NCBI GenBank assembly: GCA_964503955.1
Contig: CAZDCG010000002.1
Location: 13,047-77,046, forward strand
DNA: 64,000 nt
From: an uncultured Gammaproteobacteria bacterium
GTDB taxonomy: Bacteria; Patescibacteriota; Patescibacteriia; VMEV01; CAYQCH01
Direction: 5' to 3'
Shown: positions 1 through 50,817 of the stretch, in pieces
Layout of the letters: each line of letters starts with the position of its first letter
Position numbering within the stretch: the first letter of the stretch is position 1
Notes under the pieces: generated by a model
Databases searched by the model: none
What the model saw: only the letters and a program-made list of their open reading frames with translations
Told to the model about the DNA's origin: nothing
Made by a program: the position numbers and the translations under genes

Positions 1-36
1 GCCGGGCTTATTTGTTTTGTGGTATGCTGAACGCAT

Positions 37-570
37 ATGAAAAAACGCTTTCTCTTCATCTTCGCGCTTGTCCTTTTTGCACCTTCCATTGCCAATGCCT
101 GTTCCTGCATCCCTCCTGAACCGCCTCTTGAAGCAAAGGAGCGCGCTGCCGCAGTTTTTGCCGGCAGAGTGGAAAGCATTGAGCAATCTGATTGGCTCAT
201 GCAAGGCGGAGCTGATCCTGTGATTGTAAGGATGACTGTTTCAGACGTATGGAAAGGACCTGAGAATCAGAACGTGACCATTCGCACGGCGCGCGACAGT
301 GCTGCCTGCGGATACTCCTTTGAAGAAGGGAAAGCATATCTGGTCTACGCGCATGAATCGGATAACGGATTGGCAACCGGTATTTGTGAACGCACGGCCT
401 TGCTGAGCGACGCTGAAGAAGATGTCAAAGAGCTTGGCGAAGCAATCGAGCCGGCCAGTTCAGAGGAGCCAATCTCAGCAAGAGGGAAGGAAGAGTATCT
501 GGCCGTTTCCATTCTCGTTCTGGTGATTGCGGGGGCATTCCTCTTTTGGGTTCGGTCAAGACGAGCATAA
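37..570 (+). CDS. Secreted or membrane-anchored TIMP-like (NTR-domain) protein. Signal peptide, mature N-terminus CSC, C-terminal TM helix.
   Basis: N-terminal signal peptide MKKRFLFIFALVLFAPSIANA followed by CSCIPP. Downstream motifs KGPE, SAACGxS and GKxYLxxxxExDNG line up with the TIMP N-domain (CSCSPV, KGPE, SAVCGVS, KKEYL). C-terminal hydrophobic stretch YLAVSILVLVIAGAFLFWV. Confidence 0.5.
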   Translation: MKKRFLFIFALVLFAPSIANACSCIPPEPPLEAKERAAAVFAGRVESIEQSDWLMQGGADPVIVRMTVSDVWKGPENQNVTIRTARDSAACGYSFEEGKAYLVYAHESDNGLATGICERTALLSDAEEDVKELGEAIEPASSEEPISARGKEEYLAVSILVLVIAGAFLFWVRSRRA

Positions 571-1062: not shown

Positions 1063-1488
1063 ATGCAATTCATTGAAAACCTGCGAAGAGAAGGAGCCGT
1101 CAAGGCGGTCCGGCACTTGATCTCGGCTCCATTTATCTATGCCATCTTCCCGGCATTTGTGCTTGTGCATGCCTTCTTTGAGCTCTATCATTTCGTTTGT
1201 TTCCCGCTCTACGGAATTCCGTATGTGCAACGCAGCAGGTATTTGCGCGTAGACCGGCAAAAGCTGAGCTATCTGAATTGGGTTGAGAAACTGAATTGCG
1301 TCTACTGCGGTTATGTAAACGGCATCTTAAATTATATGGTTGAAATTGCCGCTCGCACGGAAACATACTGGTGCGCCATCAAACATCAAAAATATCCCGG
1401 CATGATCGAGCCGGCACATCATGCTGATTTCGCGGAGTACGGAGATGAAGACGGATTTGTCAAAACATTGAATGACCGTCCCGAGTAA
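1063..1488 (+). CDS. Hypothetical membrane protein with CxxC motif
   Basis: 141-aa ORF with hydrophobic helices and a CVYCGY motif. No recognised family. Confidence 0.35.
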   Translation: MQFIENLRREGAVKAVRHLISAPFIYAIFPAFVLVHAFFELYHFVCFPLYGIPYVQRSRYLRVDRQKLSYLNWVEKLNCVYCGYVNGILNYMVEIAARTETYWCAIKHQKYPGMIEPAHHADFAEYGDEDGFVKTLNDRPE

Positions 1489-2529
1489 TCATTCCTTTTT
1501 GACGTGTTCATCAAAAAATTCGAGCGTGCGGCGCATGACAAGCGGCCAGGCATCGATAAATTCATGGGGTTCGCCTTCGTAGACATGATACAGATGCTTT
1601 TTGCCGGCCGCTTGCAAGGCCGTATCAAGTTCGTCTGACCAGGCGAGCGGAACATCTTTGTCATTTGTGCCATGATGCGTCATGACTGGGGCCGTGATCT
1701 GATCAAGAAAGTTCAGGGCAGAAACATGTTTCCAGAATTCAGGCTGCTCGCTGGGGGAGCCATAGAGCGCGAGAATCTGTTCAGCAATCTCGGTTCGCTG
1801 TTTTGTCCAGCGTTCAAAGTTTTTCCAGGCATCGCCGCTCACAGGCGCAAAAAGCACCGCCGCGTCAATAAGATCAGGTTTTGCCACCAGAATATTCAAC
1901 GTGATGCCGCCTCCCATGGAGTGGCCCAGCATGCCGATCCGGTCGGTATCCATAGATGGCAATCCAGATGCTTTCGCGGCGAATATGGCGTTGACCACAT
2001 CTTTTGCATAGGCAAGACGAAGCGAAAGCTCCTGATCGGGGTCTTTGTCGGATTGCGCGTGATTTCGATAGTCGGGGTGAATGACGATATAACCGTTTCG
2101 CGCAAAATAATCCTGCTCGCGTTTGAGCCCTCGGCCATTGGTATAAACGGCCGGGTCAATGTATCCGTGATTAAGAATCAGCACGGGGAAGGGACCGTCT
2201 CCGTGTGGAACATTCATGATGCCCGAAATCGTCAATTCGCCGCTTTTATACGTGATAAAGTAGCGGGTATAATCATTTGTGCGCGCAAGGACATCGCCGA
2301 CAGTGAAATCCCGGCCGTCAAATATTTCTTTGCTCAAGGCTTTTAAGGAAACCGGATGCGGCGATGCGGCATGAGCGTTTGCGTTTTCAGGCAGACTGTC
2401 GGTTTCACGCAATGCCGCAGGCTTTGCATCTGTTGAAAGTTCCGGCGCGGACTGTTTTTGTTGCGGCCAAAGAATCACCATGGCGCATAGGCCGGCGAAG
2501 AGGGTCAGTACCAATAGTCGTTGAGACAT
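1489..2529 (-). CDS. Secreted alpha/beta-hydrolase (S9 peptidase/esterase-like serine hydrolase)
   Basis: N-terminal signal peptide. GHSMGG nucleophile elbow (GxSxG). Alpha/beta fold pattern with C-terminal HxxxD. Confidence 0.7.
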   Translation of the reverse strand: MSQRLLVLTLFAGLCAMVILWPQQKQSAPELSTDAKPAALRETDSLPENANAHAASPHPVSLKALSKEIFDGRDFTVGDVLARTNDYTRYFITYKSGELTISGIMNVPHGDGPFPVLILNHGYIDPAVYTNGRGLKREQDYFARNGYIVIHPDYRNHAQSDKDPDQELSLRLAYAKDVVNAIFAAKASGLPSMDTDRIGMLGHSMGGGITLNILVAKPDLIDAAVLFAPVSGDAWKNFERWTKQRTEIAEQILALYGSPSEQPEFWKHVSALNFLDQITAPVMTHHGTNDKDVPLAWSDELDTALQAAGKKHLYHVYEGEPHEFIDAWPLVMRRTLEFFDEHVKKE

Positions 2530-2598
2530 ACTGCAAAGATAACAAATCAGGCGATCTATGCTATTCTATAATAAACTTAGCTTTTTTTACATGCTTTT

Positions 2599-3411
2599 AT
2601 GGTCATGAGAAAAATCGGACTCCTCATTGCCGTGCTGGTAATTGCGGGAGCTTTCTTTGCTCTTTATACTGCGAGAAATACGTCCGGCCCGTCAGACGAT
2701 GAAATGAAAAACGCCGATATGATGCGACAGGAGGCCAAATACGAAATCGAATCGGAAATGGTCGCGTATTTCGGCGATGTTGAAGGTTTATTCGCGCGTC
2801 CAAAAGGAGAGGGTCCCTTTCCCGGCGTGGTCGTGATTCATGAAAATCGAGGACTTCGCCCTGAAATTCGTGACACTGCCATGAACCTGGCAGGGCAGGG
2901 GTATATGGTATTGGCTGTTGATCTCCTTGGCGGCGTGGCGGAGGATCAGACCGGTGCGCGCGAGTTGACGGCAAAATTCAATCAGGAAACGGGGGTTGCC
3001 AATATGCGGGCGGCTGCTGCATTCCTTCGGGAGCAGGGCGCGCAGAGAATCGCGTCGCTTGGGTGGTGCTTTGGCGGACGCCAATCCTTGGCGCTGGCGA
3101 CATCGGGCGAGCAGCTTGACGCGACTATTGTGTATTACGGAGGCGGTATGCCGACAACCGAGCAGGAGCTCTCTCCGATCAAGTGGCCGGTTCTTGGTGT
3201 TTTCGGGGATCAGGATCAGGCAATTCCCGTTGAAAGAGTAAATGAGTTTGAATCATCTCTGAATGCGCTCGGCGTTGAAAATGAAGTCTATATCTATCCG
3301 GGTGTAGGCCATGCCTTTGCGAATCCTTCCGGCGCGAACTATGCTCCGGCAGAAACCATGGATGCCTGGGAGAAAACACTGCGTTTCTTAGAAGAGCATC
3401 TTGCAAACTAG
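2599..3411 (+). CDS. Dienelactone hydrolase family protein (membrane-anchored)
   Basis: N-terminal TM. VVVIHENRGL and GWCFGG (DLH Cys-nucleophile motif). C-terminal GVGHAF. Confidence 0.75.
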   Translation: MVMRKIGLLIAVLVIAGAFFALYTARNTSGPSDDEMKNADMMRQEAKYEIESEMVAYFGDVEGLFARPKGEGPFPGVVVIHENRGLRPEIRDTAMNLAGQGYMVLAVDLLGGVAEDQTGARELTAKFNQETGVANMRAAAAFLREQGAQRIASLGWCFGGRQSLALATSGEQLDATIVYYGGGMPTTEQELSPIKWPVLGVFGDQDQAIPVERVNEFESSLNALGVENEVYIYPGVGHAFANPSGANYAPAETMDAWEKTLRFLEEHLAN

Positions 3412-11700: not shown

Positions 11701-14700
11701 TTATACCAATAGGGAAGAAATTTGTTGGATTTCAGCAAGCAATTCTTTTGGTATATCAGCATTGTTGATTCTACCTTTCTTTCCAGCAGCGAGGCGTCTG
11801 ATCTGAAGCAGTAATGAACCTTTTTCTTTATCACCAAGAGATAGGGCATTAGGGATCTTGGGTGAGATGGCTTCAATCAGCGTTTTTTGAGCTCGAATCG
11901 CCCTTTTATCGATTTCTTTTGGTAATTTTTTCAATAGACTTTCCCATGCCTGATTCAACTCCAGCTGCAGCTCTTCAGGAGTTGGCTCGCGCAAGGATTC
12001 AATATATGTTTGCAGCTCCGTGAGTTTATCCCGTTTCTCAGCAGGAGTCTCTAACTGATCAAACTCATCCTGAAAGCCGTTAAGTGCTGCGTTGATATAT
12101 TCGCCATTTTCTTTTCTGGAGGCGGCGGTATTTCTTCCTTGTTCTACCAATTGCTGCCACTGCTTCTGTACGTCTTTTTCAGCATTTGCTTCAGTCTCTC
12201 TTCCGCTTTGTTCGATTTCACGTTCCCGGCTTACTAACGATTCTTTTAGTGTTTGCAGTTCAGTTGCCGAAAGTGTAGGTATCGGCTCTCGCTTTCCCTC
12301 CCCGTATCCAGGAGAAGATGGTCCTATCTCAAGTCCAAGCAATTGCCGGATGTGATAGACAGTGCCGCTGCGGCTTCTGTTAAATTGATCAAAATCTTTT
12401 TTATTAAGTCGCTCAATATCTTTTGCTATTGCCTTGAACGAATCTGATTGTTCCTTTGTTTTATCTGGCTTAGATGCGGAAGCCGGCGTTTCAATGAGGG
12501 ATTGGACTTTATTGATGAATACAACCATGTCCTGTTCAGCCTCTTGTCGTGCTTTTTTCTTTTCCTCCTCTGTAGCAGCCTTATTCAGCGCGTAAGCTAG
12601 TTCACGATTCAGAGCAGCATATCCGTGCATAATAGATCGAACCTGATCTTTTGAGAGTTTGGAGTCTGCTTCCTGCATTAGAGACCATGCCCTTAATCTG
12701 GTTTTTTCAGAAACCCCTGTCACATCGCTTGCTTTTTCCAATTTTTTTACGGTAACGGAAATAGGAGGCTTGCCTTCAGGTCGATCTCCTTTGGGAGATT
12801 CTTTTTTCGTTTTTTCTCTGATACCCCATTCATCAGCAATTTTGTCTATTTCTCGGTAGAATTCTGCGGGATCTTTCTTTTCGGATTTCAGAGCGTCATT
12901 CACCGTCTTTACGGCAGCATTAAGAAAATCGCGCTTCAATGCTTCCGTAACCGTTGGGGAGGAGAGCAGATTGTAGGCAGCTTCGTCTAATGCATGTTCC
13001 CTCCTTGAACGCTCTTTAGGGAGAATATTGTGTTGAACAAGCAATTTTGCCAGAGGGTTGATTGTCCTTCTTATTTCCTCATTCTCGGCAAGGCGCTGTT
13101 CCGTTTCTTGTAGAAGCGCTTCAATTTTTGCGATATGAGCCAGCAATTCACCCCGATTTTTGATAGCTTCGTAAGCCTTCTCGCCAGCGCTTATTCCAAT
13201 GAGCTGAATTCGATTCTTAACGGCTTCTTGATCAGGCTTTTTATCGCCATTTGAAAGAGATTTCTTCAAATCCTGATATTCTCCCCAAAGCCGTTCCTGG
13301 TCTTCCTTCCACTCTGGTGTCTCTGGTTTTGACGATGCCGGCTCATGTGCCGCATCCGGCGCTTCTCCTGAAACTTCCCCTGTGCCGGTCGATGAAGTGT
13401 CTGCTTCAGATCCGCTGGAACCTGTTTCTTTCGGCAAATCGGAAACAAGGGATTCAATGAGAGTCAGGTTGTAGTTCAAGTCGTTCAATAGCTTGGATTT
13501 CAGCATTCTGGTGCGTTCAATGAGTTTTGCATTGCTGAATTTGAGCAGATCTTTCTCAATGTTTTCTCGAATCTTTGTCACTGTTTCTGGGAGGGGATCA
13601 GGGGTATCAACTAAAATGCTATCTAATCGACTGGTGATTTCATCCTTGAGCGTCTCGGGGTTTTTGGCGTAGCGCTGAATCTCGTCTGGTAGGGATTCAG
13701 AAGCCTTGCTTCTCAGAAGTCCAATATTCAAATCGAGATCCTTTAACAATTGCCCCTGAAGCAAGCGGGAGCGTTCTTTTGAAGAAGCCTTGCTAAATTG
13801 ATCGATGATTTCTCTGGTTTTATTGAGAAGAGGTTTGATATCCTCTGGCAAATCCGCATCATCCATAGATTCGCCAAAACGGGCCTTGAGAATGCCTGAA
13901 AGTTTCTTTGAATATTCTTGCTGGAGAAGCACAGGTTCCTGCTCATATTTCCTATACACCTTGTAATGCTCAAGCGCGGATCGAATTTCAGCGAATTTTT
14001 CCTCGAGCAAAGAAAGATAGGTTGTTTTAAGAAGATTTTCATAAGACCCTTCTTTTGGCTTTTGAGCGTATTCAAGCCCCGCGTCCAATTGGGCGATCAG
14101 CTGCTGGATATGTTCTGGGAGATTCTTTTGCTCTGTATCAGTTCCAAGAACTTCGCGAATGGACTTCTGAAGAAATTCCTGAGCAACTTGTTTGAGTTGG
14201 TCTGGATTCTTTGTTGACTCCGCGCTATGTTCAAATCTGCCTGCGGTGCCTAGTTGGTCCATCAATTCTTCGATCTTGTCGAAAGCTTTGTACCGCTTCA
14301 CAACCGTGTCAGAAAGCACAAATTCTTTCATGTACCGGTTCACTTGTGCCACCAGTTCTTTCAAACGAGGCGGCTGGTTGTTAAGGTCATTGCCAAGCGC
14401 CTTATTCATTCTTTCGCTGATATGTTTCCTGTACAGGTCGGGATCTTCGAGGTAATCGATTCCGGCTTCATGCTCAATTTTGTCATCGCTTGTTGAAGAG
14501 ATGTGACCCTCATAAAGAGCGGCAATCTTTTTTCTCACGCCGCTTCTTCGCAATACATCCGTTACAGGCAAACCAGCAAGTTCTTGATAGAGTTCCATTA
14601 CCCGGTCAAGATCATAGCGGGCTCGTTCAAGATTATTTTCGTTCCCTTTGCTCGCCGCGTTTTCAACAATAGCTATCAATTCGGAGAAATGTTTCTTGTC

Positions 14701-15939
14701 GCGGGCTTCAGGTAATTGATCTTTAAGCTGGTACGCCTTTGCAAGAGCATTCACCGCCAAAGTCCACGATGATTCCTTGTACTGAGCCTGGCTAAGCTGC
14801 AAATGCCTCCTTCTTGTGTCCACAGCGGACAGAGCCTGCTTCAGCCCTTCGATCATCTTTTTGTAGGATGCCTTTTCATTGAAAGAAGACGAAGCCGCTA
14901 ATCCCTGCTCTTGTGCCGACTTCTCGTCTTGCTCAAGCAAAGCCAGCCGATTCTGATAATCGCTGAGCTTATCCTGAAGAAATGCTTCCTGCCTATCCAG
15001 AGCATTTGAAATGGTCCGCTGTTCCTGCTGGATCTGTTCTGCTTTATCCTTCACCAGCATTACTTCATCTTTCCTCAGCTCCGCAATCTTCTTGTTTGCC
15101 TGGTCAATCTCATCGTTATGCCGTTCATAGCTGGCCACGCCAGGAGCATCTTCAAGTGCGTCAGAGTTATTCTTCAAAAATCGATTTGCGTCTCTGGTTT
15201 TTCGAGTAACCTCCGCATTAACCTGGCGCAGCAGCTCGTTTGGGGCCAGATCCTGATTGCTTGAAAGATATTTTTTTAAATAAGCAGCCCGCTCTTTTTC
15301 AGGAACGACATCAAGCCCCTGAATCACTTTAAGAAAGGTATCCGCTTTTTTATCCACCCCTGCAATGACACGCTTTTGCTCTGCCGGGTTAACACTTGTG
15401 TCTATAATTTTCTCTTGCTTCTTTTGCTCGGCTTCCTGTTGCATGTACCGGTTGATCACTTGTCCGACAACAGGATAGTCTTTGAGTTTCTGCACCCATT
15501 TGGGCAGGCTGGATTTGGCAAGAATCTCCGGCTGAATCGGTTCAGCCGGAAGTTTGAGCATGCGCTCGTAGTTTTGCAGGACTTCGTTGCGGGCTTCTTC
15601 AAGCCTCGATAAAGCCCCCTTCATGGTGTCGATTGCTTTGAGCAGCGATTCAGGCGCTAGCGAAAGCTCTGAAAGCGCCTCATCGACCTCCGACTCTAGC
15701 CTTTCCATGCTCTTTTTCAATCTGTCGCGGTTGAGATCGACGAGATTGCGGACACTTTCCTGATCGGCACGAGATTTATAATCCTCTCTGAAGTATTGTG
15801 TATACCGGATAATATTGCTTGTCAGGTCGCGGATCTTGCGGCGTTGTGCTTCGATTTGAGCCGCATAGCGCTCCTCCTCCGGATTTGCCCGGCGCTCACT
15901 GGTTTCAGGTAATTCAAAAAGTTCCTTTGGAGTAGGCAT
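11701..15939 (-). CDS. Giant 1412-aa coiled-coil protein, cytoplasmic (no signal peptide or TM)
   Basis: Single uninterrupted 4.2-kb ORF. Composition is extremely E/K/L/Q/R-rich with heptad-like periodicity throughout. A Ser/Gly/Thr-rich linker lies mid-protein (GSSGSEADTSSTGTGEVSGEAPD). No Walker motifs were seen. Confidence 0.7.
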   Translation of the reverse strand: MPTPKELFELPETSERRANPEEERYAAQIEAQRRKIRDLTSNIIRYTQYFREDYKSRADQESVRNLVDLNRDRLKKSMERLESEVDEALSELSLAPESLLKAIDTMKGALSRLEEARNEVLQNYERMLKLPAEPIQPEILAKSSLPKWVQKLKDYPVVGQVINRYMQQEAEQKKQEKIIDTSVNPAEQKRVIAGVDKKADTFLKVIQGLDVVPEKERAAYLKKYLSSNQDLAPNELLRQVNAEVTRKTRDANRFLKNNSDALEDAPGVASYERHNDEIDQANKKIAELRKDEVMLVKDKAEQIQQEQRTISNALDRQEAFLQDKLSDYQNRLALLEQDEKSAQEQGLAASSSFNEKASYKKMIEGLKQALSAVDTRRRHLQLSQAQYKESSWTLAVNALAKAYQLKDQLPEARDKKHFSELIAIVENAASKGNENNLERARYDLDRVMELYQELAGLPVTDVLRRSGVRKKIAALYEGHISSTSDDKIEHEAGIDYLEDPDLYRKHISERMNKALGNDLNNQPPRLKELVAQVNRYMKEFVLSDTVVKRYKAFDKIEELMDQLGTAGRFEHSAESTKNPDQLKQVAQEFLQKSIREVLGTDTEQKNLPEHIQQLIAQLDAGLEYAQKPKEGSYENLLKTTYLSLLEEKFAEIRSALEHYKVYRKYEQEPVLLQQEYSKKLSGILKARFGESMDDADLPEDIKPLLNKTREIIDQFSKASSKERSRLLQGQLLKDLDLNIGLLRSKASESLPDEIQRYAKNPETLKDEITSRLDSILVDTPDPLPETVTKIRENIEKDLLKFSNAKLIERTRMLKSKLLNDLNYNLTLIESLVSDLPKETGSSGSEADTSSTGTGEVSGEAPDAAHEPASSKPETPEWKEDQERLWGEYQDLKKSLSNGDKKPDQEAVKNRIQLIGISAGEKAYEAIKNRGELLAHIAKIEALLQETEQRLAENEEIRRTINPLAKLLVQHNILPKERSRREHALDEAAYNLLSSPTVTEALKRDFLNAAVKTVNDALKSEKKDPAEFYREIDKIADEWGIREKTKKESPKGDRPEGKPPISVTVKKLEKASDVTGVSEKTRLRAWSLMQEADSKLSKDQVRSIMHGYAALNRELAYALNKAATEEEKKKARQEAEQDMVVFINKVQSLIETPASASKPDKTKEQSDSFKAIAKDIERLNKKDFDQFNRSRSGTVYHIRQLLGLEIGPSSPGYGEGKREPIPTLSATELQTLKESLVSREREIEQSGRETEANAEKDVQKQWQQLVEQGRNTAASRKENGEYINAALNGFQDEFDQLETPAEKRDKLTELQTYIESLREPTPEELQLELNQAWESLLKKLPKEIDKRAIRAQKTLIEAISPKIPNALSLGDKEKGSLLLQIRRLAAGKKGRINNADIPKELLAEIQQISSLLV

Positions 15940-30863: not shown

Positions 30864-32477
30864 ATGCGAAGTTTGAAGCCCCATTTGCGCGGCTTTGCCG
30901 GGTACCTGATACTCGCGATTGTTGTGCTCATTGGCGCAAACGCTGTCTTTAACACCCCTGCCTTGGCGCAGGTAGATGTTGGATTGGAGCAGGCTGAGCA
31001 GATTGGACTTACAGGAACCGATCCTCGACTCATTGTCGCTCGCATTATTCAAGTAGCCCTCGGCGTGCTGGGTATCACCGCCGTGGGGCTTCTTATTTAT
31101 GCGGGCTTTTTGTGGATGACATCCGGCGGGGAAGACGAAAAAGTCGGCCGAGCAAAGACGCTTTTGCGAAATGCGTTGATCGGCTTGATCCTGATTCTGT
31201 CCGCATTTGCCATCGTGACCTATGTCTTCAGCATTTTGCGCCCTGATCTGTATTCAACGCCTCCGATCGGTTCGCGGGGAGGGATTGGCGGTATCGGAGG
31301 CGGCGGAGGTTTCCCGATCGGTGTCATCTCCTCGCATTACCCGGATCGAGGACAAACCAATGTCGCGCGCAATACCAATATCATGGTGACATTCACCGAG
31401 CCGATACTTGTTGAAAGCATTATCGATAATGCCGGAACACCAGATAATCCCGCTGATGATCGTTTAAATACGGAAAACATTTTTATCCGACGTTCGGCCG
31501 ATGATCCAAATGATGGACCTTTCGTGCCGGCCGCAGCGGCTGCGTCTGAAGACGGACGTTCCTTTGTCTTTGACCCGATTGATCTTCTTGGTTCGTCTGA
31601 AGAAAACACCCTTTATACCGTCGTGCTTGGGGAAGGAATCACGACCGCGCAGGGAAGAGGCGCATTTGGAAATTTCGGTGCCTATGCATGGGAATTTGAA
31701 GTGGGAACCTTTATCGATCTTGAGCCGCCGCAGGTGGAAAGCGTGATTCCGGCGCAGAGTTCAACGCATCCTCGCAATGTCGTGGTGCAAATCAACTTTA
31801 ATGAAGCAATGAATCCGCTTACGGCCAGCGGAGAAGTAGGGGCTGGTTTTGATGCGATCTCGATCCGCCAAGCGGACGGCAGCGTCGTGGAAGGCCGATA
31901 CATGATCAGCAATCAGTATCGGACCGTCGAATTTATCACCAATGATTTGTGCGGGAAGAATTCCTGCGGCGAAGACGTGTTTTGTTTGCCCGGAGATGCC
32001 GCACTGACAGCTCTCCTGCGTGCGGCGACAATCAGTTTGTCACCCCCTACGGCGGCTTTTCCATATGACGGATTAACGGATGCGGCGGCAAATTCGCTCG
32101 ACGGAAATCTTGACGGTTCCGCGCAAGGTCCGCAAACGGATAATTATACCTGGTCGTTTCAAACAACCAATCAAATCGATTTGACCGCGCCGGTTATTGT
32201 CTCGGTATCGCCAAATCCATTTTCTACCCAGGTCGATCTGAATGCTCCGGTTACGGCAACTTTCAGCAAACCGCTTCAATTCAGCACCATCAACCGTAAA
32301 TCGGTGAGCGTGGACGGCCTGGAAGATTACCGGTTGAATGCCAGTTCGCAAGGCGGGCAATCTCGTATCGACATTCTGCATCGAGGGCTTTTGGAAGAGA
32401 CAACCTATACGCCGGTTGTGACATCAGATGTTCGCGATCTTTATCAGAATTGTTATCGCCCTTGTGTCGGTCCTTAA
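30864..32477 (+). CDS. Surface protein with an N-terminal T4SS-pilin-like two-helix domain and SbsA-type Ig-like repeats
   Basis: Signal peptide, then IIQVALGVLGITAVGLLIYAGFLWMTSGGEDEKVGRAKTLLRNALIGLILILSAFAIVTYVF (the hydrophobic-SGG-KAK-hydrophobic pattern of CPR VirB2/TrbC-like pilin domains). Gly-rich linker GGIGGIGGGGG. At least three repeats of the PPxVxSVxPxxxxxxVxxxxxIxxxFxExM type. Confidence 0.6.
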   Translation: MRSLKPHLRGFAGYLILAIVVLIGANAVFNTPALAQVDVGLEQAEQIGLTGTDPRLIVARIIQVALGVLGITAVGLLIYAGFLWMTSGGEDEKVGRAKTLLRNALIGLILILSAFAIVTYVFSILRPDLYSTPPIGSRGGIGGIGGGGGFPIGVISSHYPDRGQTNVARNTNIMVTFTEPILVESIIDNAGTPDNPADDRLNTENIFIRRSADDPNDGPFVPAAAAASEDGRSFVFDPIDLLGSSEENTLYTVVLGEGITTAQGRGAFGNFGAYAWEFEVGTFIDLEPPQVESVIPAQSSTHPRNVVVQINFNEAMNPLTASGEVGAGFDAISIRQADGSVVEGRYMISNQYRTVEFITNDLCGKNSCGEDVFCLPGDAALTALLRAATISLSPPTAAFPYDGLTDAAANSLDGNLDGSAQGPQTDNYTWSFQTTNQIDLTAPVIVSVSPNPFSTQVDLNAPVTATFSKPLQFSTINRKSVSVDGLEDYRLNASSQGGQSRIDILHRGLLEETTYTPVVTSDVRDLYQNCYRPCVGP

Positions 32478-32480
32478 CCT

Positions 32481-35400
32481 ATGAAGCGGATTTTGCTGAC
32501 CATTTTCATCGCGCTTTCCTTCTTTCTTCCTGCTTCCTCCGTTCTGGCGCAGGAAGCGGGGGCGGATTCTCCTGTTGAAACCGTCGTCCAGGAAACATCA
32601 TCGGTAAGCACCGGCTGGAGAGTTGCGCAGATTATCGCGCTGGCCGGGGCCGTCATCAGCCTTGGCATGCTGATTTACGGGGCGGTGTTGTGGCGCAATG
32701 CCGTGCAGAATAATGATTTGCTCATGGCCGACCGCGGCCGTAATCTAACCGTCTTGTTCGGTATCGTTTTTTTCCTGTTCCTTGTTCTATTGCTTATCAG
32801 CTTTGTGGTAATTGCGCGCCAGCAGTCGCGCCAGACGGAGCAACAGCAGCAAATACAAACAACCGGTACCGGCGGATTGAGCGTTCGGGACTCACTCTTG
32901 CTTGTTGAGGCGATTCCAAATTCCGCGGTTCCTATCCGCAATGTTGCTGTTCAGCTGCTGTTCAACCAACCCGTCAGTCAGATCAATGTAGAACAGCATA
33001 TTTTGGTATCAGCGCAAGAAGGAGAAGGACCGGTGGTCGGAACCTGGACCGTGGAAGGGGAATATGCCGTCTTTCAGCCGAATCAAGCCTGTCCCGCGCC
33101 CAATCAGAATCTGCGCTGTTTTGATGCCAACCAAACCTTTGTTGTGACTATTGCACAGGAATTGACGAGCGAAGACGGGGATGCGTTCCGTTGCTCGCTT
33201 GCCGCATCTTCCGAGCAATGCCGGTTTACCTTCACGACGGGAGAAGCGGTTGATTCCACCCCTCCGACGGCGCGCATCTCCTTGCCGCTCAATGATGCCG
33301 CGGTGGCTCAGGATTCCGCGCAGCAGGTAGAAGCGCTGGCAAGCGACGATCTGGCGGTGGCTTCCTTGCACTTCTTCGCGGATGGAGAACGAATCGGCGT
33401 ATCAGCCGCGCCGGGCAATGAGTTGCAAACTTCTTTTCGGGCATCCGCCATTTGGTTGACGGAAGGGCTCGCCATTGGATCGATGCATACGATCCGGGCG
33501 GTTGCGTATGATTTCGCCGGCAGAACGGGCGAAGCAGTGCCCGTGCAGGTGGAAATTCTTCCCGCTTACTGTTTTGACGGCCAGCAGAATGAAGACGAAG
33601 AAGGGCTTGATTGCGGAGGGCCGACCTGCCGCGCCTGCCAGGGAGCGGTCTGCAGCAGCAATGAGGATTGCGCATCAGGACTTTGCTTTAACGGTGTCTG
33701 TCAGGAATTCCCGGTGATTGAAGAAGTGATTTATCCAAACGGCGCTCCGGGAAACCTTGTGACGATTCGCGGGAAGAATTTCGGATCCGAGCCTGGATCC
33801 GTGATTTTCCTTGGAGGAGCCAGTGATGCGGATAATGTACCGGGGCAGCTTCCGCCATGCGAAGCATATTGGACGAATCAGGAAGTCATTATCGAGGTTC
33901 CAGCAGGAGCTGTCAGCGGGCCGCTTCGGCTTGAAACGGCACAGGCGCTCTACGATACCACCGACGACAGCAAAGGAGAGCGCGTTGTATTTGAAGTAAA
34001 CGATCTTGTCCGTCCAACGCTCTGCGCTGTTTTGCCGCCTTCGCAACAGGTGGGGCGATCTGTTCAGATTATCGGCAAAGCGCTTGGCGAGGAACCTGGC
34101 AAGGTCTTCTTCGGACAGAATGCCGCCAGCCGCGTTCAGGGCTGGGCCGATGACATCATTTCAGAAGTTTTTCTACCATCCATGCAGGCAGGTCCGGTTT
34201 CGGTCAGCGTGGAAGCGGCTGGAGAACGAAGCAATCCTGTGCACTTCCTTGTGCAGGAATCCGATACATTGCCGTTCATTGAATCGATCACGCCTGACCG
34301 CGGACCTGTCGGACAAATGTTCAGTCTGCGCGGGCGGCATTTCACCGCATCCGCGCTGGTTCGTTTTCTTGATCCGCGGACTGGGGAAACCATCCTTGCT
34401 GATACGCGATTGCCCCGGGAATGCGAGCAATATATTTCCAATCAGCAGCGCGCGTATCGCGTGCCAAATCTCGAACCGGGAACATATCAGGTTTATCTCG
34501 AAACGGAAATCGGCCAAAGCAATAGCGTTGATTTTGTGGTCACCCGCGGAGAACGCCTGCCAGGCCTTTGCGGCATGACACCGGACAATGGCCCGCTTGG
34601 CATTGAGGTCACGCTGCACGGAGAAGGGTTTGGAAGCCAAGCCGGCGCCGTGCGGTTCACTCCGCGCATTGATGACACGCAAATTCTTTCCTGGCGCGAT
34701 AACCGCGTGCAGGCGGTTGTGCCTGCGACAGCACAGTCAGGTCCTGTACAGGTTGTGAACGCGGCGGGCGCTTTAAGCAATGCTTTGGATTTCACCATTG
34801 GAACCTGCAGCCCGGATACATGCTCTGAAGGTCTTGTTTGTTGCGGCTCAGGCTCATGCCAGGCAGCCGGCAGCTGTGCGCAGAATATTCCATACTGTTC
34901 GTATCAATGGGTCTTTAGCACAGGTGATGATCTTGGCGGGCCTCCACGGGTGATTGAAGACGCTTCCTGCAGAAGCAATACGCAAAGCCCTTCTCCGTAT
35001 AAAGACACAAAAGACGCATGTTTGAACGCGCAAATCTCGGCGCGGTTTACCCACGACATGCTCGACAACTCGCTTTCAACCGACAATATCGTTGTACATC
35101 GCTGCAATACCGGCGACTTGCTTGATTCATCTCAATGCCAGGTCGAGGTCAATCTTGCGAGTCTCACCATCATCAATGCGGGACAACCAGGCGAGGGATT
35201 CATTGCCGCGCCGCAGGTCGCTCTTGAACCGGATACCTGGTACGAAGTTGTGCTCAGCACCGGGTTTACGGCTGAAAACGGGCTATCCATGGCATCACCG
35301 TATCGTTGGGTCTTTAAAACGCAGGTGGGAGACGGCCAATGCCAGGTCGATCATATCGAAGTTACACCAGCGTCCGCCACGCTCAGGCAGCTGCTTGATC

Positions 35401-37427
35401 GACAATCCTATGCTGCTCTTCCGATCGCTTTGAATTGCAATATTCTGAATCCTGATGAATTCACCTGGGGATGGCTGAGTTCGGACACCTCAAAAGCGCA
35501 AGTATTCTTCTCAAACGAGCCTCGAAATACGGCCACGGCCGTTGGACCAACTGATCCAGAACCGCCGGTACGCATCATTGGCCAATTGCCTGAATATGGG
35601 CTTTCTGATGAAGGACTTCTTACCGTGCGTTTGCAGCCGCCGCTGGTTGTGAACAAATGGCCGAATTGCGGCTCTGCCTGCGTGAATGCAATGATCGGTG
35701 CTCGCTTTGATCAAGCCATGAATGAATCTTCCGTGACCAACACGGCCAATGTTCAGCTATTCCGTTGTGCGGATCGCACCTGCGCTCGAGAGGGGATGGT
35801 TTCATCCGGGGTTTCTTCTCTGCGGTATAACCAAACCGATCAATCCCTCTTTTTCCTGCCGGCAGCCGGCGCTCTTGCTCAGAACACAACCTATCGCGTG
35901 GTTTTAAAGAATCTGACCAGCACCAGCGGCTTGGGATTAGGAAACCTCAATTATGACAGCGATGAGACAAGGGGGCTCGACAGTTATTCCTGGGTTTTCA
36001 GCGTGAGAGACAGCGCGGACCTTTGCACGGTTGAGGATGTCGCGGTGATCCCTTCTTTTGCTTCTTCTTCACTGATTGGTGAAGAATTCGATTATTTCTC
36101 TTTGCCGCTCTCTCCGCCGGATGCCTGCAGTCCTGAAGGACAATACCTCAATCCGGAAGCATATAACTGGGGATGGGCTTCCAGCCAGGCTGCGGTTGGA
36201 ACCGTGAGCACGGACGATATTGTTCCTCCTTCAGGATTCGTCGATCCGTATCAGATCACGAGAAGTACAGGACCTGGAGAAACTTCCATTACGGCACGCA
36301 CGCAGGACGCGAGCGGTGACGGCGATTTGCTTGTTGCCTGCGGATTCCAATCCGATCTTGATTGTCCGGCTCCGGCAACCGTGGATACCTTTGGCGTCGG
36401 CTCGGATTCCTGCTGCCGCGAGCGTCCAAGTGTGCGTTCATTCAATCCGCCTTCCGGATCAGAATCTGTTTGCACGACGCTTGGTATCGAGGTGCAATTC
36501 AACCAGGAAATGAATATCAGTTCCTTGCTCAGCAATATAGTCCTTGAGCGTTTCAACGGCTCGCAGCCATGCGCCGCGGTGCAGACAACCGCCTGGCAGA
36601 GAATGAAGGGGGTTGTGCATCGACTGCTTGCCTGGATGCTTCCGCCGGCATCAGCGCAGACTGAACATTGGTGTCAGATCCCTGCCAATATTGTGGTTAC
36701 GCAATACCTGGAAGGTTCCAGAGCGACCGTTTTTCCTCAATCTGAACTTGCGCAAAATACGCAATACCGTGTGCGCGTACAGGGGGATGCGGCCATCAAT
36801 GACGGAGTGAATCAGGGAGTAAGAAGCGCCTTTGATGTTTCCATGAATGGCGATGCCGTAAGCCTGTTCAGCACGGGCGAGGCGAAATGTAATCTTGATC
36901 TTGTTGATGTGATCATCACACCTCCGGGGAAACCTGGTTCAAAAGATGTCTTCTTCTGCGCGGTTCGCAACGATTGTCCGGGGGACGTGAATCCGGCAGT
37001 AGACGGCAATCAGCATCGATATGTTGCTGTTGGGCGCGATTTACGAGGTTTTGTCGTGCCAGGCAATTACCGATGGACAACAAACTCCGGCTCATTGGCC
37101 GGCTTGAACGCAACCGACCAGCAGGAGGTTGAAGTCAGCACGCAGCCGGAAAACGGAAATGCTTATGTTACCGTTCACGCGAACGCGGTGGCACCATCGG
37201 AGGGAAGCGTTTCGCGAACCGTCATGATCAAAATCTTCCTCTGTGAAAATCCATGGCCAAGCATTCTCGATTTCCCGTATACCGACTTCGATTTCAACTA
37301 TGATACATTCTACTGCCGCGATTTTGGCGAACCTGGTGTTTTCGATGACCTTCCTCCGCTCTCATCGCCGATTGTCGGAGACGCGGTAGGGGGCTTCCTG
37401 CACGAACGATTATTCATTGTTGAATGA
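32481..37427 (+). CDS. Giant 1648-aa surface protein with an N-terminal pilin-like domain, at least three IPT/TIG domains, Ig-like domains and a Cys-rich module
   Basis: N-terminus VAQIIALAGAVISLGMLIYGAVLWRNA...LFGIVFFLFLVLLLISFVVIA. IPT/TIG-like units VIEEVIYPNGAPGNLVTIRGKNFG, IESITPDRGPVGQMFSLRGRHF and LCGMTPDNGPLGIEVTLHGEGFG. Cys-rich block CFDGQQNEDEEGLDCGGPTCRACQGAVCSSNEDCASGLCFNGVCQ. Confidence 0.65.
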   Translation: MKRILLTIFIALSFFLPASSVLAQEAGADSPVETVVQETSSVSTGWRVAQIIALAGAVISLGMLIYGAVLWRNAVQNNDLLMADRGRNLTVLFGIVFFLFLVLLLISFVVIARQQSRQTEQQQQIQTTGTGGLSVRDSLLLVEAIPNSAVPIRNVAVQLLFNQPVSQINVEQHILVSAQEGEGPVVGTWTVEGEYAVFQPNQACPAPNQNLRCFDANQTFVVTIAQELTSEDGDAFRCSLAASSEQCRFTFTTGEAVDSTPPTARISLPLNDAAVAQDSAQQVEALASDDLAVASLHFFADGERIGVSAAPGNELQTSFRASAIWLTEGLAIGSMHTIRAVAYDFAGRTGEAVPVQVEILPAYCFDGQQNEDEEGLDCGGPTCRACQGAVCSSNEDCASGLCFNGVCQEFPVIEEVIYPNGAPGNLVTIRGKNFGSEPGSVIFLGGASDADNVPGQLPPCEAYWTNQEVIIEVPAGAVSGPLRLETAQALYDTTDDSKGERVVFEVNDLVRPTLCAVLPPSQQVGRSVQIIGKALGEEPGKVFFGQNAASRVQGWADDIISEVFLPSMQAGPVSVSVEAAGERSNPVHFLVQESDTLPFIESITPDRGPVGQMFSLRGRHFTASALVRFLDPRTGETILADTRLPRECEQYISNQQRAYRVPNLEPGTYQVYLETEIGQSNSVDFVVTRGERLPGLCGMTPDNGPLGIEVTLHGEGFGSQAGAVRFTPRIDDTQILSWRDNRVQAVVPATAQSGPVQVVNAAGALSNALDFTIGTCSPDTCSEGLVCCGSGSCQAAGSCAQNIPYCSYQWVFSTGDDLGGPPRVIEDASCRSNTQSPSPYKDTKDACLNAQISARFTHDMLDNSLSTDNIVVHRCNTGDLLDSSQCQVEVNLASLTIINAGQPGEGFIAAPQVALEPDTWYEVVLSTGFTAENGLSMASPYRWVFKTQVGDGQCQVDHIEVTPASATLRQLLDRQSYAALPIALNCNILNPDEFTWGWLSSDTSKAQVFFSNEPRNTATAVGPTDPEPPVRIIGQLPEYGLSDEGLLTVRLQPPLVVNKWPNCGSACVNAMIGARFDQAMNESSVTNTANVQLFRCADRTCAREGMVSSGVSSLRYNQTDQSLFFLPAAGALAQNTTYRVVLKNLTSTSGLGLGNLNYDSDETRGLDSYSWVFSVRDSADLCTVEDVAVIPSFASSSLIGEEFDYFSLPLSPPDACSPEGQYLNPEAYNWGWASSQAAVGTVSTDDIVPPSGFVDPYQITRSTGPGETSITARTQDASGDGDLLVACGFQSDLDCPAPATVDTFGVGSDSCCRERPSVRSFNPPSGSESVCTTLGIEVQFNQEMNISSLLSNIVLERFNGSQPCAAVQTTAWQRMKGVVHRLLAWMLPPASAQTEHWCQIPANIVVTQYLEGSRATVFPQSELAQNTQYRVRVQGDAAINDGVNQGVRSAFDVSMNGDAVSLFSTGEAKCNLDLVDVIITPPGKPGSKDVFFCAVRNDCPGDVNPAVDGNQHRYVAVGRDLRGFVVPGNYRWTTNSGSLAGLNATDQQEVEVSTQPENGNAYVTVHANAVAPSEGSVSRTVMIKIFLCENPWPSILDFPYTDFDFNYDTFYCRDFGEPGVFDDLPPLSSPIVGDAVGGFLHERLFIVE

Positions 37428-37478
37428 TATTTCGTGATGCATGGAACTTTGGTATCATAGAAAGATGAAATCATTCTT

Positions 37479-40124
37479 ATGAAACGACTTTTCTTTTTCT
37501 TCGCCTTCGCGCTGCTCGCAGCACTTCCATTCGCGAATGCTCACGCGCAATCCGGTCCGCGCGACGCGATCGCCATACGCGTGGTCCCAAATCCGGATCG
37601 CATGCCGCCGCTTTTGTGGTATCGAAACAATGTCCCAAATCCCGGAGCTCCTGTTCCGCTCGAGATTGACGGATATCCTGCCGTGCGCGACGGGCGGACG
37701 GTTTACGTGGCTGCAACCAATTACGCACCTGAAGCCGGCGCGCTTTATAGTAATATCTACCTCATTTCACATAGCGAAGCGGCAGGGGAGAAGGTGCAGG
37801 CGGTTTTTGAAGAATTTCTACAGGAATTCAGATTCAACTCTAATATCGCCGATGATGAGACCCGGGCGCAGCTGCGCCGCGATATGAGGCGAGCCAATGA
37901 TCTTTATGCGATCCGGTTGAACCTGGAGCAATACCGCCTCAGAACAGGCTCGTATCCAAACTTTGAAGCGGGCAGCTATCTGCCAAATACCACGTATAGC
38001 ACGTGGCCGTCATGGCAAACGACATTAGGCAATTTGCTAGGAACTGCCTTGCCGGTTGATCCTCGCAACCAGTTTATCGGGTGTGAAGCGCCTTTTGACG
38101 GTTCAACCTGCTGGGATCAGACCGCCAGACAATTTGCTTGTCCGCCGCAAGCGTACGTGTACGGATACCGTGCAACAGGAAGCGGCGCGACCTATCAGCT
38201 ATTTGCGAATTACGAGTACAAGGGGCCTGGCAATTGGCAATCCGTTACATTGCAGCAGCAATCAGGCGACCAGTGTTTCAATTTCGCTTTTTCAGACGTT
38301 TCAGACCCTGACGGAGATGGAATCCTAACAGGAGCGGATAATTGTGAATTTGAGCATAACCCAGATCAAACTGACAGTGATGCCGACGGCATTGGCGACG
38401 CATGCGATCTCTGCCCGAATGATCCCACCAATGACCGCGATAGTGACGGTATTTGCGGCAATATCGACAATTGTCCGACGATTGGCAATCCGTCTCAGGC
38501 GGATCTTGATGATGACGGAATCGGCGATGCCTGTGATTTTCAAGGATGCGGGAACAATGTCACCGAAGGATCCGAGGTCTGCGACGGTCAGTCCGGCATC
38601 GGACCGTTTCAAAGCTGCTCCGCTGATTGCCGGTCGGTTATCCAGCTCAGTTATTGCGGCGACGGGGTGGTCAACAATCCCAATGACCAGGGACTTTTTG
38701 AAGAGTGCGATGGCAATAGTGAAGAAATCATCTGCGAACAGCGGATCAACGGCTATGTAACGCAGCGCCGAAGAGAGTGCCGCGATACCTGCCGGTTTAC
38801 GCCATTTACTGCTTGCGAACCGATTGAATATGCGGGAGACGGTATTGTTAACGGATTTGAACAATGCGACGCAGGCGATCAAAACGGTGTTCAGTGCCAG
38901 GCTGCTTATGATCAGACCTGCCAATACTGCACTTCCGATGGACGTTTTGAATTGGCTCAAGGACCAACATGCGGCGATGGAATCGTTAATGGACCGGAGC
39001 AATGTGATGAAGGCGTGAACAATGGACGCGTTTGCACGCCCGCCTATGGAAGAACGTGTACGTATTGCGGCAACTCCTGCCGCATCGAAACGGTTCCGGC
39101 TCCATTCTGCGGGGACGGGACAAGAAATATTCCGTTTGAAGAATGCGATTCTGAAGAGGAGGATATCCCTTGTGAATCGCCGCCGGGGTATTTATATAAA
39201 AAACGCTTTTGCGCCACGCAATCAACCGCTTCGAATGTCGCCTGCAGCTGGCTGCCATTTGAAGCCTGCCGCTCGATCGGTTCCTGCGGAGACGGCATGA
39301 TCAATGGTCCGGAACCATGCGATGATGCCAAAACACCTGGCTTATGTGAACAATGCAAGATCAAGGATAATACAGTGAGCCTTACCTACAATATCGAAGG
39401 GACGAGAATCGCTTCAGCATGCGTGGGCAAAAAATCAGCCTGGCCGACAAATTTCCGCTTTGGAGGAGCTATCCCATTGACAACCGCAGAATTGAATCAA
39501 ACCTGTAATAATGCGGCAATCATCAATCCCTTTACCCGGGATGGGCAGCCATTCAGTTCTCCTTGGGGATGGCCAAGAAACGGCATGCTTTCTACGCTTC
39601 CGATTTCTATGAGGGTGGAAACTATTTTCTGGCAGCATTGGAATTGCGGCGCGCATTTTGTTGCATTGCGAAATTCCGGCGTTGAGGTAACGAGCTCGCC
39701 GTTCCATGTTCCAAAACAGGGAAAACATTGCTCAAATGACTGGCAAGTTCAGGTTGTAGACACTGGCGGCGTAACAGCCGACCAAATCCTGGCGGATGAA
39801 AGCGGTTCCCAGCCAGGCCATCTCCCGGGAGGAATCCTTAAGGGGTACTACCAGTTCGGGCAGACGAGATCGATTCGAACGTCTGATCGCATCGTCGTGC
39901 TGGAGCGTCTTTCTGAACGCAGAGATACCATGGGAAATCTGCTGCCGAATGATACATATAAACTTCTCAGCACTAGCGGCAATGGATTCATGGTCTGGTT
40001 TGGAAATACCGCCACAACGCTTGCAAGCCAGGGAAGCTCTTCCACGCCAAATACCAGCACTTTCGTACTCGGCTGCGTAGATTTCGACAATAATCGCACT
40101 TGTGACTTCATGCAGGAACTATGA
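37479..40124 (+). CDS. Secreted 881-aa protein with thrombospondin type-3 calcium-binding repeats and CGDG...CD cysteine-rich repeats
   Basis: Signal peptide MKRLFFFFAFALLAALPFANAHA. TSP3-like units DPDGDGILTGADNCEFEHNPDQTDSDADGIGDACDLCPNDPTNDRDSDGICGNIDNCPTIGNPSQADLDDDGIGDACD. At least six repeats of the CGDG(V/I/T)xNxxExCD type. Confidence 0.65.
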   Translation: MKRLFFFFAFALLAALPFANAHAQSGPRDAIAIRVVPNPDRMPPLLWYRNNVPNPGAPVPLEIDGYPAVRDGRTVYVAATNYAPEAGALYSNIYLISHSEAAGEKVQAVFEEFLQEFRFNSNIADDETRAQLRRDMRRANDLYAIRLNLEQYRLRTGSYPNFEAGSYLPNTTYSTWPSWQTTLGNLLGTALPVDPRNQFIGCEAPFDGSTCWDQTARQFACPPQAYVYGYRATGSGATYQLFANYEYKGPGNWQSVTLQQQSGDQCFNFAFSDVSDPDGDGILTGADNCEFEHNPDQTDSDADGIGDACDLCPNDPTNDRDSDGICGNIDNCPTIGNPSQADLDDDGIGDACDFQGCGNNVTEGSEVCDGQSGIGPFQSCSADCRSVIQLSYCGDGVVNNPNDQGLFEECDGNSEEIICEQRINGYVTQRRRECRDTCRFTPFTACEPIEYAGDGIVNGFEQCDAGDQNGVQCQAAYDQTCQYCTSDGRFELAQGPTCGDGIVNGPEQCDEGVNNGRVCTPAYGRTCTYCGNSCRIETVPAPFCGDGTRNIPFEECDSEEEDIPCESPPGYLYKKRFCATQSTASNVACSWLPFEACRSIGSCGDGMINGPEPCDDAKTPGLCEQCKIKDNTVSLTYNIEGTRIASACVGKKSAWPTNFRFGGAIPLTTAELNQTCNNAAIINPFTRDGQPFSSPWGWPRNGMLSTLPISMRVETIFWQHWNCGAHFVALRNSGVEVTSSPFHVPKQGKHCSNDWQVQVVDTGGVTADQILADESGSQPGHLPGGILKGYYQFGQTRSIRTSDRIVVLERLSERRDTMGNLLPNDTYKLLSTSGNGFMVWFGNTATTLASQGSSSTPNTSTFVLGCVDFDNNRTCDFMQEL

Positions 40125-50549: not shown

Positions 50550-50817
50550 GGGCCTACCTTTCAGATTGGCCCCCCCAACAAGTGTTTCCCACATGACAAC
50601 TGAAGAAAGAACGCGCATCTCCGTTTGCTTTCACAATCAGAACCCTGCGATCACCTGGAGATGCTGAAAAAGCGTAACAGGAACATTGAATTCTTGTCAA
50701 TTGGTGACGATAGTGTTTGAAAGAGAAAGAAAGGCTAATGTCAGCAAAATTTGACGACAGTTTGCAAAAAGTGCCTATTCACCCAAAAAAACAATGTTTT
50801 TGCGATCTTGGGTCATG

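Follow-up and report, generated by a model that had tools for sequence, protein, structure and literature searches.

A membrane-anchored homolog of the inhibitory domain of animal metalloproteinase inhibitors (TIMPs) in a Patescibacteria genome

A 64,000-nucleotide stretch of DNA from an uncultured bacterium (contig CAZDCG010000002.1 of assembly GCA_964503955.1, positions 13,047 to 77,046; hereafter the window, meaning this whole stretch) was found to encode, at positions 37 to 570, a small exported protein whose ectodomain is truly homologous to the inhibitory N-terminal domain of TIMPs (tissue inhibitors of metalloproteinases). Homology, fold, export and membrane anchoring of this protein are all highly probable. 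Based on the conservation of the features that TIMPs need, the protein was read as a surface-tethered inhibitor of zinc metalloproteases of the N-terminal TIMP (N-TIMP) type, with odds somewhat better than even (roughly 0.55). Four independent metagenome contigs carry the identical protein (P0001), and its neighbours are the same on all of them; the layout of the gene and its product is given in Table 1.

Taken alone, the sequence appeared only marginally similar to TIMPs. Comparison with the Pfam TIMP profile (PF00965) gave an E-value of 4.7e-4 and a score of 20.4 bits, against a gathering score of 23.1 bits, which is an operational threshold and not a biological feature. The match placed residues 20-118 on profile positions 1-108 of 183 and started at the predicted cleavage site, so that the profile begins on the predicted mature cysteine. 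A phmmer search of the PDB with the single protein returned TIMP-2 (E = 0.039), with Cys22 on Cys1, and the HMMER alignment ran Cys to Cys, query residues 22-117 on TIMP-2 residues 1-101. The stretches in common were KGPE and TA..SA.CG.S..G..YL, the latter including a ridge that reads T-A-R-D-S-A-A-C-G-Y-S here and T-A-P-S-S-A-V-C-G-V-S in TIMP-2. The parallel with the TIMP N-domain that an initial annotation of this DNA had drawn for the segment from KGPE to the CE pair was reproduced by this alignment.

At the level of the family, in contrast, homology with TIMPs appeared well beyond chance. When a profile of 120 homologs was searched against the PDB (hmmsearch), all 15 matches were to TIMP-1, TIMP-2 or TIMP-3, the best being N-TIMP-2 (E = 2.6e-8), in an alignment that starts with Cys1 on Cys1. 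Profile-profile comparison with TIMP-2 (hhalign) gave a probability of 96.5% and an E-value of 8.4e-10, with 28% identity over 100 columns. Matches to PF00965 at E <= 0.01 were obtained for 67 of these homologs, with 1.2e-9 as the best value, and relatives at 40-50% identity scored above its gathering score (P0172, 37.2 bits; P0139, 33.7 bits; P0173, 31.2 bits). A few family members have been named 'Tissue inhibitor of metalloproteinase' by JGI, while NCBI labels members as 'hypothetical' because no NCBIfam model covers the domain. An unrelated small secreted protein with a Cys-x-Cys start that mimics TIMPs would explain the weak scores of the single sequence in Pfam and against the PDB, but the profile, profile-profile and structural comparisons were all significant, each ranking TIMPs first in the same Cys-to-Cys register; chance resemblance is effectively refuted.

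In order to characterize the fold, the structure was predicted with AlphaFold2 from the 120-sequence alignment. The predicted local distance difference test (pLDDT) value was 88.3 for the full-length protein and 85.6 for the mature domain, the latter with a predicted template modelling score (pTM) of 0.81. In both Foldseek searches of the PDB, ranks 1 to 18 were occupied exclusively by TIMP-1, TIMP-2 and TIMP-3. The mature-domain model matched N-TIMP-1 (3ma2_C; TM-scores 0.73/0.73, root-mean-square deviation 2.8 A, probability 1.00) and N-TIMP-3 (3cki_B; TM-scores 0.73/0.71, probability 1.00). The domain as modelled is therefore an OB-fold of the NTR type, a five-stranded barrel flanked by helices, with N-TIMPs as its best matches, as had been anticipated in the initial annotation. 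No bacterial structure was present among the 50 best Foldseek matches listed, and no viral predicted structure matched the model.

After the TIMPs, Foldseek returned the NTR domain of PCOLCE, agrin NtA, the NTR domain of meteorin and complement C345C, with E-values of approximately 1e-4 to 1e-2. Agrin NtA, PCOLCE-NTR and netrin-C are binding or scaffolding modules in animals, and the bacterial domain might likewise be a non-inhibitory NTR/OB-fold surface module, engaged with a wall polymer, an S-layer component or a ligand on a partner cell. This reading seems rather unlikely, given that the first 18 matches in both searches were inhibitory TIMPs and not other NTR modules, and that the NTR profile (PF01759) was matched by one of the 120 members compared to 67 for the TIMP profile; neither a PF01759 match nor the six-cysteine pattern was found in the 37-570 protein itself. 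Moreover, the known NTR modules (PF01759: netrin C, sFRP, PCOLCE, complement C345C, agrin NtA, meteorin), which share the OB-fold superfamily, are internal or C-terminal, lack a free Cys1 and have a pattern of six cysteines, as opposed to the four cysteines and the mature N-terminal position seen here, where the cleavage site is fixed before an invariant C-S-C.

The four cysteines (C22, C24, C91 and C117) were invariant in the 120 homologs, and G92 was nearly so. Both the family profile and hhalign aligned them to TIMP-2 Cys1, Cys3, Cys72 and Cys101; in mature numbering they are C1, C3, C70 and C96, compared to C1, C3, C70 and C99 in TIMP-1. In TIMP-2 these residues form two disulfides, by which the inhibitory N-terminal segment is held against the C-D and E-F loops, and the C-D loop of TIMPs lines the protease cleft. 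The alignment points to the equivalent disulfides Cys22-Cys91 and Cys24-Cys117, corresponding to Cys1-Cys70 and Cys3-Cys99 of TIMPs. Invariant cysteines would also suit an extracytoplasmic protein that binds a metal (Cu, Zn or other) or takes part in thiol redox reactions, using all four cysteines or the Cys-x-Cys together with the amine, and many carriers are anaerobes in which disulfides may not form. Against this, the cysteines are placed exactly as the two structural disulfides of TIMPs, and no similarity to known metallochaperone families was detected in Pfam, NCBIfam or the PDB; such a role is considered improbable.

The signal peptide of the 37-570 protein has MKKR as its n-region, FLFIFALVLFAPS as its h-region and IANA as its c-region, with CSC directly after it, as noted in the initial annotation, so that Cys22 would be the mature N-terminus if cleavage takes place after Ala21. 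Across approximately 245 homologs, position -1 was Ala in 240 of 245 (98%), position -3 was A, V, S, T or G in 97%, position -2 was mostly Tyr, Phe, His or Leu, and position +2 was Ser (228/245) or Thr (8/245; 96% together). A lipobox ([LVI][ASTVI][GAS]C) was fitted by 13 of 247 homologs (5%). Since the A-x-A pattern is kept across homologs and the lipobox is rare, the predicted cleavage between ANA and CSC is attributed to signal peptidase I, and we infer that Cys22 is left as a free N-terminus; a gene for a signal peptidase I (Peptidase_S26) is encoded within the window. Neither of the outcomes that the initial annotation had named as counting against a TIMP-like protein (a cut that does not expose Cys1, or the lack of a TIMP or NTR profile match or of an OB-fold) was observed.

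A cysteine directly after the signal peptide could alternatively be the lipidated +1 residue of a lipoprotein processed by signal peptidase II, as in the TIMP-like lipoprotein Tim of Listeria (PMC8235301), in which case the N-terminus would be blocked and could not chelate zinc. The c-region I-A-N-A-C has no Leu at -3, however, a C-terminal transmembrane anchor would be redundant in a lipoprotein, and the family is also carried by archaea. This very improbable reading was rejected on the -3 and -2 statistics of the homologs.

Relatives with several modules were consistent with a special role of the free N-terminus. In the three-module proteins P0125, P0175 and P0192, C-S-C was kept only in the first, signal-peptide-proximal module, and the internal modules had C-P-x-C; in the two-module P0137 the first module had C-E-C and the second had lost all four cysteines. 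P0192 runs on for some 700 residues more, in which no Pfam family was recognized.

The C-terminal transmembrane helix (YLAVSILVLVIAGAFLFWV) proposed in the initial annotation was found, followed by the basic tail RSRRA, which obeys the positive-inside rule and therefore sets the topology as N-out, C-in. Hydropathy analysis identified a C-terminal transmembrane segment in 186 of 247 homologs (75%), followed by short tails (median 7 residues, 54% Lys/Arg) and preceded by linkers rich in P, A, S and T (median approximately 18 residues). The signal peptide, the C-terminal helix and the basic tail together place the TIMP-like domain on the outside of the cell, within a few nanometres of the membrane. 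No sortase- or exosortase-type sorting signal before the helix was conserved across the family, and a few members showed weak LPXTG- or CTERM-type matches instead of the usual anchor. The TIMP-like domain alone made up 25 of the 247 homologs, and other members carried different C-terminal extensions, including META, DUF6174 and repeat regions, a variety of fusions that would also suit a non-inhibitory module. In one relative, P0138 (654 aa), the reading frame continues from the TIMP-like domain and transmembrane helix into an apparent second signal peptide, of the lipobox type, and then an entire serpin (PF00079, E = 4.6e-109). Either two inhibitor families are truly fused here or two neighbouring genes were merged; this relative provides a link to protease inhibition.

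The mechanism favoured for the 37-570 protein is that of N-TIMPs. The Sec signal peptide would be removed by signal peptidase I between ANA and CSC, leaving a mature chain that begins Cys1-Ser2-Cys3, with Cys1 and Cys3 stapled to Cys70 and Cys96, respectively (mature numbering). The C-S-C-I-P segment at the N-terminus and the S-A-A-C loop would form a wedge that inserts into the cleft at the active site of a zinc endopeptidase, which is most probably a metzincin. There, the catalytic zinc would be chelated through the alpha-amino and carbonyl groups of Cys1, with Ser2 directed towards S1'. Held by the 13-residue linker and the transmembrane helix, a type-I anchor, the domain would stay within a few nanometres of the membrane surface. 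Most likely the protein would act as a standing surface shield that wards off exogenous metalloproteases of community, competitor or host origin, in the way that ecotin protects against serine proteases, or else it would restrain a membrane-proximal protease encoded elsewhere; these two roles are favoured because the gene is unlinked to any protease and the product is tethered to the membrane. A target in a host or partner was suggested in the initial annotation; a partner-directed role is conceivable because RpoD places the genome in the Patescibacteria (Parcubacteria), but the family is equally common in free-living Chloroflexota, Bacillota, Actinomycetota and archaea.

With metazoan TIMP-1 to TIMP-4 (MEROPS I35, PF00965) the protein shares a signal peptide cut directly before Cys1 (predicted here), the Cys-Ser/Thr-Cys start followed by Pro-rich residues, the OB-fold barrel, the T-A-x-x-S-A-x-C-G ridge, the K-G-P turn and the cysteines at the Cys1-Cys70 and Cys3-Cys99 positions. 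It differs in its prokaryotic origin, in being tethered by a C-terminal transmembrane helix while TIMPs are soluble, and in sequence (approximately 25% identity). In the two-domain TIMPs of vertebrates, a C-terminal domain of some 65 residues carries three disulfides; here, residue 140 is followed by the linker, the transmembrane helix and the basic tail. Only the two-domain type is excluded by this, since single-domain N-TIMPs exist in invertebrates, and the closest comparison is indeed with isolated N-TIMP domains and the single-domain TIMPs of invertebrates or helminths.

Among bacterial proteins, Tim of the Mtz-Tim pair of Listeria monocytogenes is likewise membrane-attached and extracytoplasmic, with a predicted TIMP-like fold (PMC8235301). 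Tim resembles TIMPs in predicted structure and not in sequence, is lipidated at its N-terminus, and is always paired with the gene of a metzincin by which it is cleaved (PMC8235301), whereas the present family is homologous to TIMPs in sequence, has a predicted free Cys1, is anchored at its C-terminus and lacks a linked protease. AprI/Inh of the serralysins (MEROPS I38), SMPI of Streptomyces (I36) and the potempins of Tannerella (PMC9890683) are also extracytoplasmic, often membrane-anchored blockers of zinc endopeptidases, a function that is inferred for the present protein; AprI inserts its N-terminus in the active site, and PotA has an OB-fold barrel. They differ in having unrelated folds or sequences, a gene beside that of the target protease, and no chelation by Cys1. 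Ecotin, bacterial serpins and bacterial alpha-2-macroglobulins are standalone envelope inhibitors thought to protect against exogenous proteases, and the latter two are 'animal-type' inhibitor families with wide prokaryotic branches, a serpin being fused or adjacent to the TIMP-like domain in P0138. These three have other folds and mostly other targets (serine proteases, or broad trapping), and they have been studied experimentally. The present protein is placed closer to ecotin than to the cognate-pair inhibitors because its gene stands alone, whereas those of AprI, the potempins and Mtz-Tim adjoin proteases.

The TIMP-like gene is a loner. No protease was found near it in the window, and no conserved neighbour or linked metalloprotease in the approximately 30 loci examined; in particular, no protease was both adjacent and co-conserved, as it is in the AprA/AprI, potempin and Mtz-Tim arrangements. 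Among 98 genes within two positions on either side of the gene in 26 loci, no family occurred in more than three loci, and the only peptidase was one of the cytoplasmic M3 type. Ten tightly linked neighbours were heterogeneous (P-type ATPase, HlyD/CusB-like, Uma2, alanine racemase, DinB, SRAP and unknowns), and on three further contigs no protease was present within 8 kb on either side. This lack of a linked protease gene, as well as the several other large surface proteins encoded in the window, would also suit a binding or scaffolding module. In the closest genome-resolved homolog (L005, Paceibacterota) the gene lies between those of a P-type ATPase and a CusB/HlyD-type membrane-fusion protein (L005:3877-8706), which would fit a metal-related role, but this metal-transport setting was seen in only one of the approximately 30 loci.

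In the window, the order downstream of the TIMP-like gene is DUF1801, a 141-aa protein, two membrane-anchored alpha/beta hydrolases, MsrA and an ABC transporter. The initial annotation had placed the TIMP-like gene next to the two exported hydrolases (1489-3411) and had seen in this placement a fit with a protease-inhibitor role. Both hydrolases exist and have N-terminal hydrophobic anchors, but two genes lie in between; they belong to the dienelactone hydrolase (DLH) and S9 alpha/beta-hydrolase families, which are serine-type and not metalloproteases, and they are not conserved beside homologs. The argument from these neighbours therefore fails, and a functional link to them was ruled out. 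The 141-aa open reading frame (ORF; 1063-1488, plus strand) has hydrophobic segments and a C-x-Y-C motif (CVYCGYVNG) with no Pfam family, and it follows DUF1801 on all four contigs that carry the identical TIMP-like protein.

Upstream, a tRNA-Ser(GGA) gene (L001:920-1005) with its terminator comes first, and beyond it the opposite strand carries genes for glyoxalase and EamA proteins. The terminator-like hairpin (L001:1038-1058; its 3' half is window 1-10, and its T-rich tail 11-20) ends approximately 27 nucleotides 5' of the start codon of the TIMP-like gene. An upstream regulatory leader or riboswitch was ruled out, as the hairpin at the start of the window belongs to the tRNA gene. No sigma-70-like promoter was found between hairpin and start codon, and it may be asked whether the gene is transcribed by read-through from the tRNA.

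Several observations weigh against an inhibitory function of the 37-570 protein. Its own score lies under the Pfam TIMP gathering score (20.4 vs. 23.1 bits). It lacks both the C-terminal TIMP domain and the third disulfide of the N-domain: no cysteines were found at the positions aligned to TIMP-1 Cys13-Cys124, and no more than four cysteines are conserved in the family. Many NTR modules, among them agrin NtA, PCOLCE, netrin C and C345C, are not protease inhibitors. The short linker restricts the reach of the domain to the membrane-proximal zone, and strict anaerobes and Patescibacteria are among the carriers, in which the formation of extracytoplasmic disulfides is uncertain. As no protease partner was seen in any of the genomic contexts, guilt by association is lacking, apart from the one serpin fusion, and the metal-transport neighbours in L005 may point to a metal-related role.

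Table 1. Predicted features of the TIMP-like gene and its product (positions in the window).
Feature	Position	Strand	Basis or remark
Complete coding sequence, 177 aa + stop, ATG start; membrane-anchored TIMP-like (N-TIMP/NTR) protein	37..570	+	ORF listing and translation
Sec-type signal peptide, residues 1-21 (MKKR / FLFIFALVLFAPS / IANA), predicted cleavage after Ala21	37..99	+	Sequence reading
Cys22-Ser23-Cys24, predicted mature N-terminus, equivalent to the zinc-chelating tip Cys1-Ser/Thr2-Cys3 of TIMPs	100..108	+	Alignment to TIMP-2 Cys1-Ser2-Cys3
N-TIMP-like OB-fold (NTR) domain, residues 22-140 (119 aa)	100..456	+	Pfam, family profile, AlphaFold2, Foldseek
Conserved ridge D-S-A-A-C91-G-Y-S, matching TIMP-2 S-S-A-V-C72-G-V-S in the C-D loop	295..318	+	Alignment to TIMP-2
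Cys91, predicted disulfide partner of Cys22	307-309	+	Invariant; aligned to TIMP-2 Cys72
Cys117 (mature Cys96), predicted disulfide partner of Cys24	385..387	+	Aligned to TIMP-2 Cys101 / TIMP-1 Cys99
Acidic Ser/Pro-containing linker, 13 residues (141-153)	457..495	+	Sequence reading
C-terminal transmembrane helix YLAVSILVLVIAGAFLFWV, 19 residues (154-172)	496..552	+	Hydropathy; AlphaFold2 helix at 149-176
Basic cytoplasmic tail RSRRA	553..567	+	Sequence reading

The RpoD encoded in the window was nearest to Parcubacteria/Patescibacteria sequences (up to 84% identity to a named one), which indicates a genome of the Patescibacteria, Parcubacteria group. A word-indexed search yielded 308 homologs of the TIMP-like protein, and an exhaustive phmmer search of 1.84 billion representatives yielded, with clustering at 50% identity, 9,938 clusters with E <= 1e-3; a more stringent limit of E <= 1e-10 was reached by 3,326 clusters. 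Genome-resolved homologs, sought with a six-sequence domain alignment, were found in Paceibacterota, Dojkabacteria, Peribacteria, Gracilibacteria, many Chloroflexota, Sporosarcina, Bacillus, Streptosporangium, Candidatus Kuenenia, Myxococcota, Rhodothermales and one gammaproteobacterial genome, as well as, within the archaea, in one Methanosarcinales genome; archaeal homologs also occur in Woesearchaeota. Nonomuraea gerenzanensis (NZ_LT559118.1, at about 5,022,000; L041:5890-6582) has a 230-aa ORF of matching architecture, with the signal-peptide junction AHA/CSC, the TIMP-like domain, a C-terminal transmembrane helix and an RRRNAQ tail; this ORF is unannotated in the PLSDB gene table, and the 11.85-Mb record is labelled 'plasmid I' yet is chromosome-sized. 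No homologs were found in phage records or true plasmids, and no signature of horizontal transfer was detected, GC content being uniform over the first 12 kb of the window.

Also encoded in the window are ATP synthase, FtsZ, DnaG, LytR-CpsA-Psr and a number of very large surface proteins. A run at 30864-40124 (plus strand) comprises three large proteins with a predicted surface location, of 537 aa (T4SS-pilin, Big_5), 1648 aa (Big_5, TIG, Big_7) and 881 aa (thrombospondin type-3 repeats), and it may represent an attachment or cell-surface apparatus encoded by this Patescibacteria genome. Two long ORFs on the minus strand, of 1411 aa (11701-15939) and 517 aa (61440-62996), had no Pfam match at E <= 1e-3. 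An isocitrate lyase / PEP mutase family protein (PF00463, E = 1.8e-100) is encoded at 49254-50618 (minus strand); a protein of this family is unexpected in the reduced metabolisms of the Parcubacteria group.

In reviews and evolutionary papers, TIMPs figure as a family of metazoans or eukaryotes that is linked to the extracellular matrix (PMC9409782, PMC4860685, PMC10755359), and according to the Listeria study of 2021 no bacterial TIMP-like protein was on record (PMC8235301). Some members of the present family are already tagged in databases through Pfam; no paper on the family, or on prokaryotic TIMPs, was found in the literature. What is new is a protein classified as a prokaryotic, single-domain, membrane-anchored N-TIMP with two predicted disulfides. 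It keeps the mechanistic core of the TIMP inhibitory domain and represents approximately 10,000 clusters from many bacterial phyla and archaea, and its cultured carriers (Sporosarcina, Bacillus sp. CGMCC 1.16541, Nonomuraea gerenzanensis and Streptosporangium) allow direct testing.

It can be proposed, tentatively, that prokaryotic N-TIMPs constitute an ancient and widespread class of surface inhibitors, ancestral to the metazoan TIMP/NTR domains, which in episymbiotic Patescibacteria shields the surface from metzincins of the host or community. If inhibition of zinc endopeptidases holds true, the family would add a major new class to the protease inhibitors of prokaryotes, it would offer minimal two-disulfide N-TIMP scaffolds for the engineering of MMP and ADAM inhibitors, and the account of the origin of TIMP and NTR modules would change. 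It would also give a handle on how the wall-less-looking, surface-exposed Patescibacteria survive in protease-rich communities.

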